Shown: positions 6,775 through 15,453 of the stretch, one piece after another | Layout: every line of letters begins with the position of its first letter | Numbering within the stretch: the first letter of the stretch is position 1 | Assembly: GCA_024641325.1 (NCBI GenBank) | Contig: JAHEDJ010000007.1 | Coordinates: 3,008 to 67,007, forward strand | Source: a bacterium | GTDB lineage: Bacteria; Actinomycetota; Acidimicrobiia; Spongiisociales; JAHEDJ01 | Length of the DNA stretch: 64,000 nt | Direction: 5' to 3' | The notes under the pieces: model-generated | The model's input: the letters and a program-made list of their open reading frames with translations, nothing else | Told to the model about the DNA's origin: nothing | Database searches by the model: none | Program-made: the position numbers and the translations under genes

Positions 6775-7524
6775 ATGCCGATGCCGGTGGCGAGGACAAC
6801 GTTGCGGAGTTTCGTGGTCCTTGTATTCGCCCTGCTGCTCGCCGCGAGCCTTGCCTCGATGGCCGGCGCCCAGGATGAGACGACCGAATCGACGTCGGGA
6901 GAGGCACCGGTTCGAGAGGTCAACGAGGCCGGCCAAGCCATCTACGACTCTGTTTGCTTTGCTTGCCATCAACCGAACGGAGAAGGTACGGCCGTCTTCC
7001 CTCCGCTCTATCCGAATCCTCATGTCGATGACGCCGTTTATGTCGAGGATGTGATCAGAAACGGGCGCACCGGAGAGATAGTCGTCAATGGGGTCACCTA
7101 CAACGGCCGCATGCCGGCTCAGAATTTGACCGATGAAGAGATCACGGCAGTGATCGACTACGTCCAGTTCGATCTCGGTCGTCTACCTGTAACTCCGGGC
7201 GAAGTGGTTGGAGAGGACGCCTTTCCCTGGGGCCTCCTCACCTTGTTCGCTCTCGTGTCCGTGCTGGCGGTCGGGATCGCCTACATAATCGTCACACCCG
7301 GCGGCGAGGGCTTCACCTGGGCGAGGGCCTGGTGGTTGGCCGCTGTCGTGTTCTTGTACTTCGCAATCGCAACGGTCTGGCTGCCCGACTATGTGATCAA
7401 CGAGCCTGCGTTGGCGTCGATGCCGGATCTCGTCAGGGATCTAGCCGCCGCCGGTGCGTGGTTCGTCGCGCTGGCCGCGGGTATCTACTCGCTGCGAATC
7501 CTCCAGAAACGCGGCCGGGTCTGA
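6775..7524 (+). CDS. c552-like cytochrome c with signal peptide and C-terminal ~3-TM anchor
   Basis: Signal peptide, CFACH heme motif, FPPL, YNGRM axial Met, hydrophobic C-terminal segments. Confidence 0.88.
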   Translation: MPMPVARTTLRSFVVLVFALLLAASLASMAGAQDETTESTSGEAPVREVNEAGQAIYDSVCFACHQPNGEGTAVFPPLYPNPHVDDAVYVEDVIRNGRTGEIVVNGVTYNGRMPAQNLTDEEITAVIDYVQFDLGRLPVTPGEVVGEDAFPWGLLTLFALVSVLAVGIAYIIVTPGGEGFTWARAWWLAAVVFLYFAIATVWLPDYVINEPALASMPDLVRDLAAAGAWFVALAAGIYSLRILQKRGRV

Positions 7525-7753
7525 GCCATTCGGCGTAGCCGAGTGAAGCACCTGATACCCGGTACCTGGTACCAGGTGCGGAGGCGTCCGCCCCGGACGG
7601 CGACCGTTTCCGACGCCGTGTTGCCATCGTCGTCGATCGTCCTCTATGCTCGCTCGCAGCGCGGAGGGTGAGGATTCTACGACCTGCGAGTCGGGTTGCT
7701 CTCGGTCCCGACTCGCCGTTTGGGCAGTGCACGACCGGTGGAGAGCTATCACC

Positions 7754-7894
7754 ATGGAAGAGATCAAGTCCACTGAGGAGGAGTTCCACCCGAAGGGCAC
7801 GGCCCTCGTTCTCGCGATCTTCGTCCTCGTTCTGATTCTGCTGTGGGGGACCGTGTACCTGATTCTTCTGTCGAGAGGGATGACGACGGTATGA
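7754..7894 (+). CDS. cbaD: ba3-type oxidase small subunit IIa (CbaD-like), 46 aa
   Basis: MEEIKSTEEEFHPKGTALVLAIFVLVLILLWGTVYLILLSRG: single TM with the PKG...W..Y....RG pattern of Thermus CbaD; ATGA overlap with subunit II. Confidence 0.8.
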   Translation: MEEIKSTEEEFHPKGTALVLAIFVLVLILLWGTVYLILLSRGMTTV

Positions 7895-8403
7895 GTGAAG
7901 AAACCCCCGAAGTCTCAGCGGAGACCTCACTTCACATTGATCCGTACGAGAGAAACTGGATGCGCCTAACGGTCGTACTTCTGGTCGTGTTCGCGACGGC
8001 TGTAACGATTGCCGGATTTGCATTGGGTTTCCAGGTTCCCAGCCCCGAAGAACGGGTCGATCCGAGGACGGTTGCCATCGGTGACGGTCCATTCGCGGAT
8101 CCCGGTCTTCGTGAATACCCCGACGGTAGCTACGACCTCTACATCGTCTCTCAGATGTTCTCTTTCAGTCCGAACGAGGTGACGGTGCGCGCCGGATCTG
8201 AAGTGACCTTCTACGTGACCTCGATCGACGTCCAGCATGGTTTCAAACTTCAGAACACCAACGTGAACATGCAGATAGTCCCCGGCCAGGTATCGAAACT
8301 GACGGTGACGTTCGATGAACCCGGAACCTATGACTACATCTGCACCGAGTACTGCGGTAGTGCCCACGCGCAGATGTACGGCACGCTGACGGTCGAGAAG
8401 TGA
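7891..8403 (+). CDS. cbaB: ba3-type cytochrome c oxidase subunit II (CuA)
   Basis: One N-terminal TM with YE motif, DVQHG, CTEYCGSAHAQM CuA ligands; ATG at 7891. Confidence 0.93.
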   Translation: MSEETPEVSAETSLHIDPYERNWMRLTVVLLVVFATAVTIAGFALGFQVPSPEERVDPRTVAIGDGPFADPGLREYPDGSYDLYIVSQMFSFSPNEVTVRAGSEVTFYVTSIDVQHGFKLQNTNVNMQIVPGQVSKLTVTFDEPGTYDYICTEYCGSAHAQMYGTLTVEK

Positions 8404-8419: not shown

Positions 8420-10081
8420 ATGCTGACCACACCCACCTACGAGCTCACGAAGTCGGAGAAGAGCTTCGTTTCGATCCACCTGTTGTTCGCGTTTGTCGCG
8501 CTTGCGATCGGAACGCTGTTCGGACCGCTCCAGGCATTCGAGTTCAGCGGAGTCGACTTCTATCCGCTCCTCGAGCCGGTCATTCAGTCCTATTACCAGG
8601 GCCTCACCCTGCACGGTGTGCTGAACGCGCTGATTTTCACGACGTTCTTCATCACAGGATTCCTCACGCTGACCACCATCTACGGGCTCAAGCGGCCCCT
8701 CAAGTACCCGCTGCTCAACCAGATCGGGTTCTGGACGATGGTCGTCGGACTCGTGATGGCGGCCGTCCCGATTCTGCTCAACCAGGCGAGCGTCCTCTAT
8801 ACGTTCTACCCGCCGCTCAAAGCGAACGTCTTCTTCTACTTTGGACTGACCCTGGTGGTGGTAGGTAGCTGGATCGAAGGCTACGGCTTCATCTTCACGT
8901 GGCGTGAGTGGCGCAAGGAGAATCCGGGCGTTCGCACACCGCTGATGACGTTCGGCGGTCTCATCACGATGGTGATGTGGCAACTCGCCACCCTTGGTGT
9001 GGCGGTTGAGATCTTGACCATGCTGATTCCGTGGGCACTGGGTTGGATCGACGGGGTAGATCCACAGCTGGCCCGAACCTACTTCTGGTTCACCGGCCAT
9101 CCTCTGGTCTATTTCTGGCTATTGCCTGCCTACGTGTCGTGGTACGCCATGCTCCCCAAGCAGGCCGGCGGCAAGCTCTTCAGCGACTCGCTGGCGAGGA
9201 TCGCCTTCTGGCTGTTCCTGCTTCTCTCGGTCCCGCTCGGATTCCACCATCAGTTCGTGGATCCGGGCGTCCCGGCCGGGTGGAAGTACATCCACGCGGT
9301 CCTCACCTACTCGGTCTTCTTCCCGTCGATGATTACCGCGTTCACGGTCATTGCGTCGCTCGAGCGGGCGGGTCGCGCCCGCGGCGGCAAGGGCTGGCTC
9401 GGCTGGATTCCCAAACTGCCGTGGAACGATCCGTCGGTCAGTGCCCAGTTGCTGGCCGGAATCCTGTTCTTCTTCGGCGGGATTGGCGGCATCACCAACG
9501 CCTCATACAACATCAATCTCGTCATCCACAACACCGCCTGGGTTTCGGGTCATTTCCATCTGACGGTGGCGTCGGCCGTGGCGTTGTCCTTCATGGGAAT
9601 TTCCTACTGGCTCGTCCCTTATCTGCGCGGCAAGAGGCTCTGGAGCCGCAAGTGGGCCGTTATTCAAACGTGGCTGTGGTTCGTCGGCATGCTGATCTTC
9701 TCGAACGCCATGCACGTCCTAGGGCTGCTCGGTGCTCCCCGGCGAACGCCACTCGGTGAAGCGCCTTATATCCCTGAGGAATGGAGCGGGCACCTGCTTC
9801 GTACCAGCATCGGAGGAGCGATCCTCATGGTGTCGGCATACATGTTCATCTACAACATCGCCAGGACCTGGTGGTCGAAGAAGCTGAACGCCGGCCCGGG
9901 CGAATTGGTCGAGATTCCAGCCGCCGAGTCGGTGCATCCCGCCCAGCAGACGCCTGCCAAGCTCGACTGGTGGACGCCGTGGCTCATCGGGACGGTAGCC
10001 CTGATTCTCGTTGCCTACGGACCCCAGTTGATCGAGCAGATCGGCAACATCGACCTGTCATCGCCTGGAGTGATGCCTTAG
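8420..10081 (+). CDS. cbaA: ba3-type (B-family) heme-copper oxidase subunit I
   Basis: LTLHG, GHPLVYFWLLPAY (His-Tyr crosslink), GFHHQFVDPG, GHFHLTV. Confidence 0.95.
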   Translation: MLTTPTYELTKSEKSFVSIHLLFAFVALAIGTLFGPLQAFEFSGVDFYPLLEPVIQSYYQGLTLHGVLNALIFTTFFITGFLTLTTIYGLKRPLKYPLLNQIGFWTMVVGLVMAAVPILLNQASVLYTFYPPLKANVFFYFGLTLVVVGSWIEGYGFIFTWREWRKENPGVRTPLMTFGGLITMVMWQLATLGVAVEILTMLIPWALGWIDGVDPQLARTYFWFTGHPLVYFWLLPAYVSWYAMLPKQAGGKLFSDSLARIAFWLFLLLSVPLGFHHQFVDPGVPAGWKYIHAVLTYSVFFPSMITAFTVIASLERAGRARGGKGWLGWIPKLPWNDPSVSAQLLAGILFFFGGIGGITNASYNINLVIHNTAWVSGHFHLTVASAVALSFMGISYWLVPYLRGKRLWSRKWAVIQTWLWFVGMLIFSNAMHVLGLLGAPRRTPLGEAPYIPEEWSGHLLRTSIGGAILMVSAYMFIYNIARTWWSKKLNAGPGELVEIPAAESVHPAQQTPAKLDWWTPWLIGTVALILVAYGPQLIEQIGNIDLSSPGVMP

Positions 10082-10196: not shown

Positions 10197-12428
10197 ATGG
10201 ATCCCGAGCGCCTCAACGAACTCCAGCCTGGCGCTGATTGGCAAACCCGCCGGGGTGGGACCGTCAAGCTGTGGCTCAATCGGTTCGAGGCCTGGTCGCT
10301 CATTGTCGAGCGTGCCGTCGGTCGGCTGGTTCGCGAACGGAACCTGAACCCGCTCCATCACACCGGGACGATCACGGTGTTTCTGCTGGTTCTGCTCCTC
10401 GTCACCGGCATCTATCTCACGCTCTTCTACCAATTCGGGTTCGACGCCACCTACGAGGCTGTTGCGGGAATCGAGGCTAATCCGCTGAGCCGGATCGTCC
10501 GGGCCGTGCATCGTTACGCTTCGGCCGCCACGTTGATAACGGCCGTCATCCATGCCTGGCGAACCTTCTTCATGGATCGGTTTCGGGGCGCTCGCTGGCT
10601 GGCCTGGGTTACCGGCGTGGCCTCTGTGACGCTCGTATGGCTGGCCGGCGTCACGGGCTACTGGATGATCTGGGATGTAACGGCCGGTCCTTTGAACCAG
10701 TCCCTGATCGATTTGATTGATTGGATCCCCGGCTCGGATACATTCATCGTCAACACGTTGAACCCGCAGTTTGCCGGATCGGGCTGGGTGTTTCTCGTGC
10801 TGGTCATCACGGCGCACGTGCTGGTGAGTGCGGTCATCGGTCTGATGCTCTGGTATCACCTCAGGCGACTGAACCGGGCCCGCTGGTTGCCTCCTGCACA
10901 CTGGATGTGGATATCCAGCGCCGTGTTGCTGGCGGCCGCCGTGGCTGTGCCGGTCGGGATGCTGCCTGCGCTAGATGTCACCGAACGGGTCGGGACGATC
11001 GACCTGGATATCTGGTTTCTCGCCTACCTTCCGGCGGCGCTGCGCTCGCCCGCTTTGTTGTGGACGGCCGTCGCGACGGTGACGGTCCTTGGAGCTGCGA
11101 TTCCCTGGTTGCTGAGGCGTCGGCTACCCGCGCCCGTCGTTGTAGACCGCCGGCGGTGCACGGGTTGCACTCTCTGTTTCGTCGACTGTCCGTACCAGGC
11201 GATCGCTATGGAAAGGCAGGGGGGTGGCGAACTGTTGGCGATCGTCGATCGACAGAAGTGCGTGTCGTGCGGCATCTGTATCGGTAGTTGTCCACCGTTG
11301 GCCATCTCATTCGACGGAAATCCTCCCGAGGGCAAATGGCCGACAGACGATGAACGCGTCCGGAGCGGAGCTGCGGTCTCCTATCTGTGTGAACGCCACT
11401 TCCAGAAGAGTTCAGTCGGCAGTGATGGAATTGTCGTGCCGGTTACGTGCGTCGGGATGATTCACCCTGATGAGATAGACGCGGTGCTGTCTGCGGGGGC
11501 AAGTCGGGTGCGCCTGATCGGATGCCCGCCGGATGACTGCGCCAACCGGGAGGGCAATGAGTGGACTCAGGCCCGGTTGACCGGGAAGCGGCGTCCGAAG
11601 GCTCCGCAGGGGCTCGATCTCGGCCGGGTCGAATTCGATTGGCGAGCTCCGGGAGATCCGCTCCCCGGCGCCTCCCCGGCCGAATTCCGGGATGTTGTTC
11701 CCGCTGCGCAATGGAAGCGGCTCATGCCGGTTGCGCTGATGTTTGGAGTGTTGCTGGCCGGCCAGCTTCTATTGACCTTTGTTCCGGTGGATGCTTTTGG
11801 TGACGATTCGGCAGTGGTCGAGGTATCGATGAAGCACCGCATCGGAGTGGCGATCGAAGGAATCCCGGATCCGGAGGGACTCTTCGTAGGTAGTGGGACT
11901 CGACTCGAACTACTCATCGATGGACGGGTGGCTCTGGATCGTTCGTACGGCGGGTCGGCCGTAACGGTCTTCGAGCAGGTAGAGATCAGCCCCGGATTGC
12001 ACGAGATCACAGTCGTGGTCGATGATGGAGGGGTCCGGCAGATGGTGGTGTTCGAGGAATCCCGCGTCTTCGGCGCGCGCGAGATCATCTCGATAGCCGT
12101 CAAAGACACGCCGGGCAGTGCCGATCCGGACCGAGGTGAAGAGCTCTTCACCGCCGCTGCCATTCGTGGAGGCGCCGGATGCAGGGTTTGCCATTCGCTC
12201 AGGGAGGGAGACGACGGTGTGGGGCCGTCTCTGGCGGGTGTCGCCACCCGGGCAGCCGGCCGCATTGCGGGCGTGTCGGCCGAGGCCTATCTCCGCCAAT
12301 CCATTCTCGACCCCGACGGGTTCGTGGTTGAGGGGTATAGGCCCGGTCAGATGCGATCCGACATTGCCGAGGAGCTCACGAATGATGAACTCGCCGACCT
12401 GATTGCCTATCTTCTGACCTTGAGGTGA
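10197..12428 (+). CDS. fusion: cytochrome b (N- and C-terminal parts) + 2x[4Fe-4S] ferredoxin + MvhD/FlpD-like Fe-S domain + TM + cytochrome c
   Basis: His pairs VHRY..IHAW and AHVL..YHLR; CTGCTLCFVDCP and CVSCGICIGSCP; YLC..VTCVGM..GCPPDDCANREGN; CRVCH..GQM. Confidence 0.85.
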   Translation: MDPERLNELQPGADWQTRRGGTVKLWLNRFEAWSLIVERAVGRLVRERNLNPLHHTGTITVFLLVLLLVTGIYLTLFYQFGFDATYEAVAGIEANPLSRIVRAVHRYASAATLITAVIHAWRTFFMDRFRGARWLAWVTGVASVTLVWLAGVTGYWMIWDVTAGPLNQSLIDLIDWIPGSDTFIVNTLNPQFAGSGWVFLVLVITAHVLVSAVIGLMLWYHLRRLNRARWLPPAHWMWISSAVLLAAAVAVPVGMLPALDVTERVGTIDLDIWFLAYLPAALRSPALLWTAVATVTVLGAAIPWLLRRRLPAPVVVDRRRCTGCTLCFVDCPYQAIAMERQGGGELLAIVDRQKCVSCGICIGSCPPLAISFDGNPPEGKWPTDDERVRSGAAVSYLCERHFQKSSVGSDGIVVPVTCVGMIHPDEIDAVLSAGASRVRLIGCPPDDCANREGNEWTQARLTGKRRPKAPQGLDLGRVEFDWRAPGDPLPGASPAEFRDVVPAAQWKRLMPVALMFGVLLAGQLLLTFVPVDAFGDDSAVVEVSMKHRIGVAIEGIPDPEGLFVGSGTRLELLIDGRVALDRSYGGSAVTVFEQVEISPGLHEITVVVDDGGVRQMVVFEESRVFGAREIISIAVKDTPGSADPDRGEELFTAAAIRGGAGCRVCHSLREGDDGVGPSLAGVATRAAGRIAGVSAEAYLRQSILDPDGFVVEGYRPGQMRSDIAEELTNDELADLIAYLLTLR

Positions 12429-12433
12429 TCTAA

Positions 12434-12802
12434 ATGAAGCGACTTGTTGTGATGCTGGTCCTTTCGACACTCGTTGCGGCCTGCGGAGGGGAGTCGGGCG
12501 ATGGACCGGAACTGCTGGGACAAGAACTCTTCCATGAGATCGTGGTCGGTGGAAAAGCCGGTTGCGGTTCCTGTCACTCGATCGAGGCGGGCAAAGACGG
12601 CGTTGGTCCGTCATTGGCCGGTGTGGGAACCGCAGCTGCGGGACGGGTGACCGGCCTTGCCGCGGCCGACTATCTCAGGCAGTCGATAACCGAACCGGAC
12701 TCGTTTGTCGTTGAGGGGTTCAACGCAGGTGTCATGCCGAGAGGCTGGGAACTCAGTGATGAGCAGATCGAGTCACTGGTGGACTACCTGCTGGGCCTGT
12801 AG
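12434..12802 (+). CDS. cytochrome c lipoprotein
   Basis: Lipobox LVAAC, CGSCH, GVM axial Met; paralogous to the C-terminal domain of the upstream fusion. Confidence 0.9.
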   Translation: MKRLVVMLVLSTLVAACGGESGDGPELLGQELFHEIVVGGKAGCGSCHSIEAGKDGVGPSLAGVGTAAAGRVTGLAAADYLRQSITEPDSFVVEGFNAGVMPRGWELSDEQIESLVDYLLGL

Positions 12803-13641: not shown

Positions 13642-14364
13642 ATGGCGATCTCAGTCGATTCGCCTGAGACAACCGAGGAACCGCGCCTCTCTCGGCGAGG
13701 ACGGCGATGGCTGATCGCCGTCGCCGTCGTGGCTGCGCTCGTGGTTGCATCCGTCTTCGCATTCGTTACTTTCCAGCCCATTCAGGTATTGCCCCGGGTT
13801 CGCCTGGCGCCCGGGTTCAGCCTCATCGATTCGGAAAGCCGGACGCTGACGAGTGAAGATCTGCGAGGCCGTTTCGTCCTTTACACGTTCAGCTACTCAT
13901 CCTGCGAGAACTGCGGCTCGATCGACGAGACGATGCTCGAGATCCAGGAAGGCCTTGCTACGGCAGACCTCCGTGGTCTCCCCGTGCGGCTGGTGACGAT
14001 TTCGATTGATCCGGATGACACCCCTGAGACGCTGGCGGCTTACGCGGATTCGACAGGGGCTGATTCGTCCGTCTGGACGTTTGCGGCCGTGGAGGATGAC
14101 CGTTTCCTCGCCGATGTCGTCGCCGGCGGCTTCAACACTTATTACGCCGCCGAGGACGACGGATCCATCAGTCTCGATCGGAGCTTCGTGCTCGTTGACA
14201 ATGCCGGAATCATTCGCAACGAGTACAAATATCAGACCCAGACTTCCGATGCAGAGCGGATTCTTCGCCACCTCGGCGTTCTCGCCGAGGAAGTTGAGAA
14301 CAGCAAGGGCGCCGCCAGCCTCGCGTATGAAGCCGCTCACCTGTTCCTCTGCTACGCCCCATGA
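13642..14364 (+). CDS. atypical SCO-family/thioredoxin-fold protein
   Basis: N-terminal TM, APGFSLID, LRGRFVLYTFSYSSCENC, VTISIDPDDT, FVLVD; CxxC replaces CxxxC. Confidence 0.8.
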   Translation: MAISVDSPETTEEPRLSRRGRRWLIAVAVVAALVVASVFAFVTFQPIQVLPRVRLAPGFSLIDSESRTLTSEDLRGRFVLYTFSYSSCENCGSIDETMLEIQEGLATADLRGLPVRLVTISIDPDDTPETLAAYADSTGADSSVWTFAAVEDDRFLADVVAGGFNTYYAAEDDGSISLDRSFVLVDNAGIIRNEYKYQTQTSDAERILRHLGVLAEEVENSKGAASLAYEAAHLFLCYAP

Positions 14365-15005
14365 CAGAGTCACCGTTCTCCGAGGAACTAGCTCCTTCCC
14401 GCTCCAGGCCTCCATGGCAATATGCCCTGGTGGCCGTGCCGCTCCTGGTAGCCGGCCTCGTCTTCTGGTGGGGGTACAACCGTGCCCAGCCGCATCAGTT
14501 CAGCGGTGCAGTTATTCAGGGGCTGACCGCAGCTCCTGATTTCTCGCTCTCTTCGGACTCGGGCCCCGTTTCTTTGAGTGATCACCGCGGCAAGCTGGTG
14601 GTTCTGTACTTCGGCTACACGTTTTGTCCGGATGTCTGTCCTACCACTTTGCAGGATGTCGCCGACGCGATCGAGATCCTCGACGACGATGATGCGAAAG
14701 ATGTCCAGTTGATCTTTGTGACGGTCGATCCGGTCCGGGATACCGCAGAACGCCTTGGTGAGTACGTGCGTCACTTCGACGAGAGCTTCCTCGGGGTAAC
14801 CGGCACCGAAGAGGAGATCGGGTCGGTCGCCACCCTCTACGGGATCTACTACCGCGCCGGGGAAGGGTCGGAGGCGACCGGTTATCTGATGGAACATACG
14901 GCCACGTTGCTCGTGATTGATCGTGAAGGAAACCTGAAGGAAGTCATTCCGTTCGGGGTCGATTCGGAGGGCATCGCTGCCGATTTCGAATACATGCTGC
15001 GATAG
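14361..15005 (+). CDS. SCO1/SenC copper chaperone
   Basis: YFGYTFCPDVCP, VTVDPVRDT, MEHTATLLVID. Confidence 0.93.
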   Translation: MTESPFSEELAPSRSRPPWQYALVAVPLLVAGLVFWWGYNRAQPHQFSGAVIQGLTAAPDFSLSSDSGPVSLSDHRGKLVVLYFGYTFCPDVCPTTLQDVADAIEILDDDDAKDVQLIFVTVDPVRDTAERLGEYVRHFDESFLGVTGTEEEIGSVATLYGIYYRAGEGSEATGYLMEHTATLLVIDREGNLKEVIPFGVDSEGIAADFEYMLR

Positions 15006-15018
15006 AACAGGAGAGATC

Positions 15019-15453
15019 ATGAGGCGAATATGGGCGGCATTAGCGGCGGCCGTACTGCTCGCAGCGGCCGGATGTGCCGGTGGCGCTGATATCGAGGTTA
15101 CGGATGCCTGGGGTAGGCCGTCGCCTTCCGCGGCATCAAACGGCGCTTTGTACATGATGATCGCCAACAACACCGACTCGGTCGATCACCTGGTTGCGGT
15201 GTCTTCCTCTGCCTGCGGCGTTGCCGAACTCCATGAATCGATCATGAGCGACGGAGTCATGAGTATGAGTCCGGTTGGATCCGCCGGTATTGAGATCCCC
15301 GCGGGAGGCGAAGCGACCCTAGAGGTTGGTGGGTTACACGTTATGTGTATCGACAAGCAAGCAGACTTCATCGCAGGTGATACCTACGAAGTTACCCTCG
15401 AGTTCGATAAGGCGGGATCGCTCACCGTCGATGTGGAGATCAGAGAGGGTTAG
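15019..15453 (+). CDS. PCuAC copper chaperone lipoprotein
   Basis: Lipobox AAGC, DAWGRP, ELHES..M..M, GGLHVM. Confidence 0.9.
   Translation: MRRIWAALAAAVLLAAAGCAGGADIEVTDAWGRPSPSAASNGALYMMIANNTDSVDHLVAVSSSACGVAELHESIMSDGVMSMSPVGSAGIEIPAGGEATLEVGGLHVMCIDKQADFIAGDTYEVTLEFDKAGSLTVDVEIREG

Follow-up and report, generated by a model that had tools for sequence, protein, structure and literature searches.

What does a membrane protein do that joins, in a single chain, a cytochrome b, a ferredoxin domain, an MvhD-like domain and a cytochrome c? The question is posed by a gene (10197..12428, + strand) in a 64,000-nucleotide stretch of contig JAHEDJ010000007.1 (assembly GCA_024641325.1, a bacterium of the Acidimicrobiia); this whole stretch, to which positions refer, is called the window. 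The gene, a listed open reading frame (ORF), encodes a fusion protein of 743 amino acids (aa) with seven transmembrane (TM) helices, as defined by Pfam matches, hydropathy and an AlphaFold2 (AF2) model. Its sequence and genomic setting suggest that it is a variant of the cytochrome bc-type respiratory module: widespread, tightly linked to oxidases, and with a core that was noted in 2014. The near-obligate linkage to a haem-copper oxidase is the decisive context, and it was missed by an earlier note on this DNA.

Is the chain genuine? The note had taken the ORF for a single polypeptide and not a set of joined genes, and this was borne out: contigs from two other sediment samples match 10197-12428 with 3 substitutions and 0 gaps, and a word-indexed search returned at least 734 full-length relatives. 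Sequencing or assembly error is excluded as the source of the fusion, because independent contigs lack gaps and full-length homologues number in the hundreds. In relatives that are approximately 95% identical, a compensating +1/-1 pair leaves the reading frame intact, which points to selection for an unbroken ORF. The pair falls at window 11879-11887, in the region of the beta-sandwich described below, where, in related strains from two other metagenomes, an insertion (+1) and a deletion (-1) lie within a few bases of each other and come in either order. The gene is also transcribed: three estuary metatranscriptomes – libraries in which DNA carry-over is possible – contain contigs 90-99% identical to coxB, cox1 and several parts of the fusion, and one contig (12157-12496) crosses the fusion stop codon into the gene for a small cytochrome c. 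Every element that the note had listed is present in the ORF, with Pfam matches, invariant residues, hydropathy and the AF2 model in agreement; in the domain scan the matches to cytochrome b, Fer4, FlpD and cytochrome c all exceed curated Pfam cut-offs.

The cytochrome b part (residues 48-307; 10338..11117, + strand) comprises helices A-F and is defined by Pfam, by sequence and fold matches and by invariant residues. Residues 48-226 match Cytochrome_B and Cytochrom_B_N_2 (PF00033, 38.6 bits; PF13631, 42.1 bits; cut-offs about 27), the top sequence match is cytochrome b6 (1q90_B, 5.8e-12), and the Foldseek alignments with QcrB and mitochondrial cytochrome b cover 290-325 columns at a probability of 1.00. 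Since some 300 residues align with full-length cytochromes b, helices E and F belong to the cytochrome b fold and are not extra helices; helices G and H are absent from the fusion. Conservation was assessed across 37 full-length homologues (42-79% identity to the fusion) and in more distant relatives down to 23% identity. The four His that the note had proposed as haem ligands, H105/H119 and H207/H221 (each H-x13-H), are invariant among the 37 and are found in distant relatives too, H221 at 90% or more; H105 and H207 are the pair for the P-side haem, H119 and H221 that for the N-side haem.

A putative quinol site is indicated by the ef loop before helix F, where D271, at the PEWY position, is invariant (LDIWFL here, IDxFFL as clade consensus, xDWFYL in distant relatives). 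Compared with PEWY, PDWY and PDWF, the acidic and aromatic residues are kept and the Pro is lost: judged by these residues, the P-side quinol-site motif appears to be retained in a degenerate form. An Asp at this position fits the PDWY/PDWF pattern that Kao and Hunte, in the part of their 2014 phylogeny that treats the motif, tie to menaquinol-using systems (PMC4122944). In helix A the haem-cn motif CxGG is replaced by H55-T-G-T, which places the fusion outside the three-haem b6 type. H55 is invariant in this clade only; as a universal cofactor ligand it was rejected for that reason.

The next part of the chain is predicted to lie in the cytoplasm and begins with a ferredoxin domain for two [4Fe-4S] clusters (residues 314-371; 11136..11309, + strand; Pfam Fer4 and Fer4_7 above cut-off), within which there are two Fer4 matches. 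The two Cys motifs reported earlier, C321-x2-C324-x2-C327-x3-C331-P and C355-x2-C358-x2-C361-x3-C365, hold at all distances sampled: all eight Cys are invariant, even at 23% identity. An MvhD/FlpD-like domain follows (residues 392-485; 11370..11651, + strand), recognised by Pfam (FlpD, PF02662, residues 413-485; 38.6 bits against a cut-off of 22.3; 1.2e-9), by a Foldseek match to 8rvu_F and by alignment with the solved MvhD chains 9sw2_D and 5odc_D, whose VMCSG, GC and DC motifs align with C418, C443 and C448. Together with C398 (in CERH) these three are invariant in the clade and in distant relatives. The four Cys listed in the note thus stand, whereas H401 (the His of CERH) is without variation in this clade alone and fails as a family trait; a Cys3His centre with H401 as ligand was rejected as a family feature, H401 being lost from distant relatives where the four Cys are not. 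As H401 is clade-specific and the four Cys are kept, the centre is most simply a four-Cys site and is presumed to hold a [2Fe-2S] cluster. The ferredoxin and MvhD tandem as a whole matches the C-terminus of HdrA2 (residues 572-750; NCBIfam NF040770, 5.8e-14).

Hydropathy and the positive-inside rule yield seven TM helices. The N-terminus, the B-C loop, the D-E loop and the segment following helix F are rich in Lys and Arg, a distribution by which the Fe-S and MvhD domains are predicted to be cytoplasmic and the C-terminal part to face outwards. The AF2 model of the fusion (pLDDT 83, pTM 0.78) has helices that agree with hydropathy, so that three lines of prediction – hydropathy, charge bias and modelled helices – concur with the note in assigning the Fe-S domains and haem c to opposite sides of the membrane. 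The one further TM segment that the note saw after the MvhD-like domain is the seventh helix (residues 503-528; 11703..11780, + strand; AF2 helix 503-527), which returns the chain to the outside.

There the chain forms a predicted seven-stranded beta-sandwich that contains no Cys (residues 529-641; 11781..12119, + strand; AF2 pLDDT 90.5). It is kept in most relatives that lack the cytochrome c, and is probably a spacer or docking domain. A structure search with the outer domain gave only generic Ig-, FnIII- and CARDB-like matches, none at E<=1e-3; given this and the missing Cys, a cupredoxin, a Rieske substitute or a metal site was rejected, as was H547 of the same domain as a universal cofactor ligand, since it is clade-specific. 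The chain ends in a class I cytochrome c domain (residues 642-743; 12120..12428, + strand), as the note had supposed: Cytochrom_C (PF00034) matches residues 646-742 (3.4e-8; 35.1 bits against a cut-off of 21.3), C662-R-V-C665-H666 is invariant among the 37 homologues, and M719, the likely sixth haem c ligand on this alignment, is present in at least 90%. The domain resembles the cytochrome c domain of caa3 oxidase subunit II (1w2l, 3.1e-5).

With what genes does such a protein keep company? With a threshold of E<=1e-30, an exhaustive HMMER search yielded 354 clusters at 50% identity; when each species was represented by one genome, 512 genomes turned out to have a relative. Among these 512, the 80 with the best matches are all metagenome-assembled genomes (MAGs) of Anaerolineae, Caldilineae, other Chloroflexota, Acidimicrobiia or other Actinomycetota. 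Proteins of the window were mapped onto these loci (here and below, single loci are cited by L number where they have to be told apart), and genes upstream were counted where at least 2.6 kb of upstream DNA was available (n=63). Of these 63 loci, from MAGs of Chloroflexota and Acidimicrobiia, 62 have the gene for a haem-copper oxidase subunit I as immediate upstream neighbour on the same strand, usually accompanied by subunits II and IIa and by SCO1. In the loci examined, the search for the neighbourhood in other genomes, proposed in the note, places the gene beside a haem-copper oxidase almost without exception.

Many relatives lack the cytochrome c and keep the cytochrome b, the 2x[4Fe-4S] domain and the MvhD-like domain, usually with the seventh helix and the beta-sandwich. 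They occur in Nitrospinae, Nitrospira, Gammaproteobacteria and Magnetococcales. Relatives of this kind at 30% identity have a haem-copper oxidase adjacent in 5 of 7 informative loci, the two exceptions being L006 and L090. Because these relatives retain the core and mostly adjoin oxidases, comparison indicates that the conserved unit is the cytochrome b/Fe-S core and its conserved partner the haem-copper oxidase, the fused cytochrome c being an addition of one clade. One of the five, L092:8001-13078, encodes a relative of 656 aa, again without cytochrome c, immediately before a cluster that looks A-type (short COX2, COX1, COX3, COX4_pro); linkage is thus not limited to ba3-type enzymes. A COX1-SCO1-fusion cluster at another locus has a hemerythrin gene (L091:10092-10481) 10 nt after a 693-aa relative, and its product may be an O2-binding accessory. 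The magnetococcal form at L090 consists of cytochrome b, Fer4 and FlpD only, with neither seventh helix nor outer domain; its gene and an isc Fe-S assembly cluster run in divergent directions, and the next gene after it encodes a 169-aa protein without a family match.

The interpretation offered in the note stood as regards its domain assignments, its predicted topology and the want of a local Rieske gene. It went astray in missing the oxidase, and its anaerobic framing, after HdrA/QmoB-type systems, was misleading because the gene is part of an aerobic respiratory operon. We give roughly even chances to the reading that the fusion is a menaquinol-oxidising, Rieske-independent input module dedicated to the ba3 oxidase encoded beside it. 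On this reading, which draws on conserved residues and the predicted model, the outer, Qo-like pocket would oxidise menaquinol with no Rieske protein involved. Of the two electrons, one would pass by way of the fused haem c and a lipoprotein cytochrome c to CuA and O2; the second would move from the outer b haem across the membrane to the inner b haem. The inner haem would in turn be wired to the cytoplasmic Fe-S chain, which would replace or supplement a Qi site and act either as an N-side outlet for electrons to some acceptor or as an inlet priming quinone reduction. Module and oxidase together would form a quinol-to-O2 supercomplex. Besides ligands, fold and topology, the reading is favoured by the oxidase gene immediately upstream in 62 of 63 loci, by the oxidase-adjacent relatives without cytochrome c, by a CuA motif that calls for a cytochrome c donor, by the likeness of the fused cytochrome c to that of caa3 subunit II and its paralogue 5 nt downstream, by the transcripts of coxB, cox1 and the fusion, and by the lack of Rieske in the window and the conserved operon.

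A bolder form of this scheme is quinone-based bifurcation hard-wired to O2 reduction, in which the second menaquinol electron would reduce a soluble cytoplasmic acceptor and not a quinone at Qi: the electron running downhill to haem c and the ba3 oxidase would drive the other through the b haems into the 2x[4Fe-4S] and [2Fe-2S] centres. We put this forward tentatively and consider it unlikely.

Several observations weigh against the input-module reading. The fused cytochrome c is clade-specific, and the 507-aa magnetococcal relative (L090:8001-9524) is not oxidase-adjacent. No conserved cytoplasmic partner gene was found in the neighbourhoods examined. A haem c fixed beside the quinol site could, moreover, take both electrons, leaving the b haems and the Fe-S chain without a role in the scheme. 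Lastly, 13 related loci (L001, L002, L011, L012, L017, L020, L023, L028, L038, L042, L060, L070 and L077) contain a separate Rieske/cytochrome b cluster within 10 kb (about 3-9 kb) of the fusion operon. The fusion, co-existing as it does with true Rieske complexes, is not simply 'the' complex III.

These neighbouring clusters are seen in MAGs of Chloroflexota and Actinomycetota (e.g. L001:13660-18801, L002:13314-18592) and have five genes: a GltD-like flavoprotein with Pyr_redox_2 and Fer4 domains (620-687 aa), a b6-like cytochrome b, a subunit-IV-like protein with an APWY loop, a Rieske protein and a multihaem cytochrome c. They resemble the anammox-type Rieske/cytochrome b complexes with an NAD(P) subunit. 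Their presence bears on the possibility that the fusion is a conventional Rieske/cytochrome b complex after all, with the Rieske protein encoded elsewhere, the fused haem c standing in for cytochrome c1 and the Fe-S/MvhD part serving as an accessory N-side subunit of the kind proposed for anammox-type complexes. The retained cytochrome b fold and PEWY-like loop speak for such a complex; Rieske genes are less than 10 kb away in the 13 loci, and at L006 a relative without cytochrome c stands directly beside genes for a Rieske protein and a dihaem cytochrome c. Cytochrome b complexes that combine a cytoplasmic Fe-S/NAD(P) subunit with a Rieske protein are moreover known, as set out in the relevant passages of Dibrova et al. 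(2017; PMC5600118). Yet the neighbouring Rieske genes come with a cytochrome b and a subunit IV of their own, and identity between the fusion and these cytochromes b is as low as 26-29%. The 64-kb window is free of Rieske motifs, and the genes that make up the conserved operon in the 62 related loci include none for a Rieske protein. The clusters of a related clade are likewise described as lacking Rieske genes in Kao and Hunte's account of that clade (PMC4122944). Supply of a Rieske protein in trans is in our judgement distinctly unlikely; the note's claim of Rieske independence keeps its local basis, with supply in trans as its rival.

The GltD-like flavoprotein bears equally on a second alternative, that electrons run from the inside to the outside. 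A cytoplasmic donor, perhaps reduced ferredoxin or a flavoprotein dehydrogenase encoded elsewhere, would dock on the MvhD/ferredoxin module, and electrons would pass from [2Fe-2S] through 2x[4Fe-4S], inner b haem, outer b haem and haem c to the oxidase, or would end on P-side menaquinone, as in di-haem succinate:menaquinone reductases. A dehydrogenase would then be anchored in the membrane by the fusion and pass its electrons straight to the oxidase. What is conserved throughout the family speaks for such a conduit: cytochrome b, 2x[4Fe-4S] and the four-Cys MvhD-like domain are kept, and the cytochrome c is not. MvhD is an electron connector, known only in that capacity and with flavoproteins as partners (PMC12350162), and the order of centres, with the [4Fe-4S] pair by the membrane and the distal [2Fe-2S] last, is like that in the wires of membrane-bound dehydrogenases. 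Genes for GltD-like NAD(P)H/Fe-S flavoproteins do recur nearby, in the 13 loci plus L006 and L089, but they sit in Rieske/cytochrome b clusters that have a cytochrome b of their own; as a conserved cytoplasmic partner the flavoprotein was rejected on that ground, and no other partner gene is conserved in the operon. Nor is there a gene for an HdrA-type flavoprotein, a hydrogenase or a formate dehydrogenase in the window cluster (by Pfam) or in the conserved neighbourhoods. An outward flow of electrons would also dissipate membrane potential, and the family-wide retention of helices E and F and of the PEWY-like loop argues for a working P-side quinone site and not for a bare wire. A conduit of this kind is the main rival to the input module, if on the doubtful side.

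The cluster has several further genes. In the Acidimicrobiia clade it starts with a cytochrome c that has C-terminal membrane helices (6775..7524, + strand; Pfam Cytochrom_C, 5.3e-12); a counterpart lies upstream on the same strand in L004 and L007 and on the opposite strand in L017, L020, L023, L077 and L086. Next is oxidase subunit IIa, of 46 aa and ba3 type (7754..7894, + strand; Pfam CoxIIa, 21.2 bits against a cut-off of 20.7), whose presence makes the oxidase ba3-like and which is called at the equivalent place in L001-L004 as a gene of 43-46 aa. A longer listed ORF of 82 aa (7646-7894) conceals this gene in its 3' portion; automatic gene callers could miss or extend it. Subunit II (7843..8403, + strand; Pfam COX2 and Cupredoxin_1) bears in translation the CuA motif CTEYCGSAHAQM, from which it follows that the oxidase draws its electrons from a cytochrome c donor. 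Subunit I (8420..10081, + strand; Pfam COX1, 7.9e-96) precedes the fusion gene, with no convincing terminator between the two.

A small cytochrome c with a lipoprotein-type signal (…LVAAC; 12434..12802, + strand; Pfam) begins 5 nt past the fusion stop codon. It is a paralogue of the fused cytochrome c domain (12120-12428; 53% identity by tblastn) and looks like a tandem duplication of it; of 77 related loci, no more than 35 have a downstream counterpart that satisfies our criteria. After an intervening ORF on the minus strand come two SCO1/SenC genes and PCuAC (13642..15453, + strand; Pfam), which are factors for copper delivery to CuA and are found in the equivalent clusters of related loci. 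The first SCO1 gene (13642-14364) scores 49 bits to the second's 136; the two overlap by 4 nt, and the order of the pair is kept in L004 and L007.

These copper genes raise a further possibility: that the fusion serves assembly or maintenance, with cytoplasmic electrons keeping outside copper or the thiols of CuA and SCO reduced, or that it is an oxidase-attached sensor of redox state or O2. SCO1 is a constant companion of the gene and PCuAC a frequent one, and a hemerythrin gene follows one relative; the CuA oxidase itself, however, accounts for SCO1 and PCuAC, and a seven-cofactor protein with a putative quinone site is far more elaborate than the known shuttles of thiol or copper reductant. 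The presence of a paralogous cytochrome c and of a CuA centre agrees with an ordinary chain of electron donors. We consider a role in assembly or sensing very improbable.

How new is the protein? Fusions of cytochrome b, 4Fe-4S and MvhD were listed by Kao and Hunte (2014) as the 'PDWF-FeS clade', with no Rieske gene in the cluster; the clade appears there as an entry in a phylogeny, with proteins named from M. magneticum and T. parva and, in the passages describing it, no proposed function (PMC4122944). Compared by architecture with that description, our fusion has what defines the clade (a cytochrome b with Qo region, 4Fe-4S, MvhD), with LDIW in place of the PDWF motif; the relatives without cytochrome c from Magnetococcales, Nitrospinae and Nitrospira have the PDWF-FeS core and an xDWF(Y) loop, and M. 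magneticum AMB-1 is a culturable host of the core type. The core fusion has therefore been on record since 2014, as a sequence observation only; relative to the published description of the clade, what is added here is the linkage to oxidase, the seventh helix, the beta-sandwich and the fused cytochrome c. Full-text literature searches, whose coverage excluded subscription-only papers, found no functional study of the family. A Chloroflexi protein with b6, DMSOR-beta-like and FlpD domains is mentioned in one paper's appendix. Dibrova et al. (2017) treat cytochrome b complexes with cytoplasmic Fe-S/NAD(P) subunits as models of bc ancestry, and the searched passages of that paper do not list the fusion family (PMC5600118).

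Comparison with known systems shows where the fusion resembles them and where it departs. Like bc1, b6f and the actinobacterial bcc complexes it has a four-helix bundle for two haems, H-x13-H on helices B and D, helices E and F and a PEWY-like, if degenerate, loop, and its outward c-type haem is tethered by one helix, as in cytochrome c1. Unlike them, it lacks helices G and H, has HTGT for CxGG, carries Fe-S domains fused after helix F and is encoded in an operon without Rieske. The anammox-type or 'subfamily G' complexes, in the description given by Dibrova et al. (PMC5600118), similarly join the N side of a cytochrome b to cytoplasmic Fe-S centres, but they have a Rieske protein, subunit IV, multihaem c and a separate flavoprotein, where in the fusion the Fe-S part is fused, there is no flavin or NAD(P) domain, and the operon has no Rieske gene. 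The tandem of 2x[4Fe-4S] and MvhD is shared with the C-termini of HdrA2 and QmoB, and QmoC is comparable as a haem b and Fe-S protein; in contrast to these, the fusion has no HdrA flavin domain and no HdrB/C, its membrane part is of bc and not of NarI/HdrE type, and its operon is that of an aerobic oxidase.

Similar in setting are the Sulfolobus oxidases SoxABCD and SoxM, in which a cytochrome b homologue (SoxC, SoxG) is encoded with a haem-copper oxidase and works as the quinol-oxidising part of that oxidase, a function to which we liken that of the fusion. SoxC is not known to have a Rieske partner. The SoxC model NF041076 matches residues 64-222 of the fusion at 2.4e-11, far below the model cut-off, and the Sox systems differ in being archaeal, in having haem A in the b-type protein and in lacking the Fe-S and MvhD domains and the cytochrome c. 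Alternative complex III (ActABCDEF), whose genes often accompany those of caa3 oxidases, is a Rieske-independent quinol:cytochrome c oxidoreductase; should the fusion indeed be a menaquinol-oxidising input module, this complex with its caa3 oxidase would be alike in function, though non-homologous. Its building blocks are a membrane subunit of NrfD-like type, Fe-S clusters on the periplasmic side and multihaem cytochromes, whereas the fusion is built from cytochrome b, and the ActB, ActC/F and ActA families are absent from the Pfam matches of the nine cluster proteins. Geobacter CbcBA and CbcL also pair a Rieske-less b-type di-haem membrane protein with an outward c-type haem, but use multihaem c and extracellular acceptors, and have neither cytoplasmic Fe-S domains nor linkage to an oxidase.

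The accepted routes from quinol to oxidase are Rieske/cytochrome b complexes, alternative complex III and direct quinol oxidases. If the fusion does act as a menaquinol-oxidising input module it would constitute a fourth, a Rieske-free cytochrome b route with an extension, by way of three Fe-S centres, into the cytoplasm. This large family is found in groups that predominate in sediments, wastewater and groundwater (Anaerolineae, Acidimicrobiia, Nitrospinota), where genome surveys probably score it as a 'bc complex' or a 'hydrogenase iron-sulfur subunit'. It also bears on the origin of the Q cycle, in that a complete cytochrome b with a putative Qo site sits on a cytoplasmic Fe-S wire, an arrangement that has been suggested for ancestral bc complexes. 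It is for the role of its Fe-S chain that the family merits experiment: were bifurcation to operate with the wire reversed, it would be a built-in version of the long-debated input of electrons from ferredoxin to the Qi site of b6f, and bifurcation in either direction would make the family a respiratory complex of a new class, coupled to an oxidase and widely distributed among Chloroflexota, Acidimicrobiia, Nitrospinota and others.

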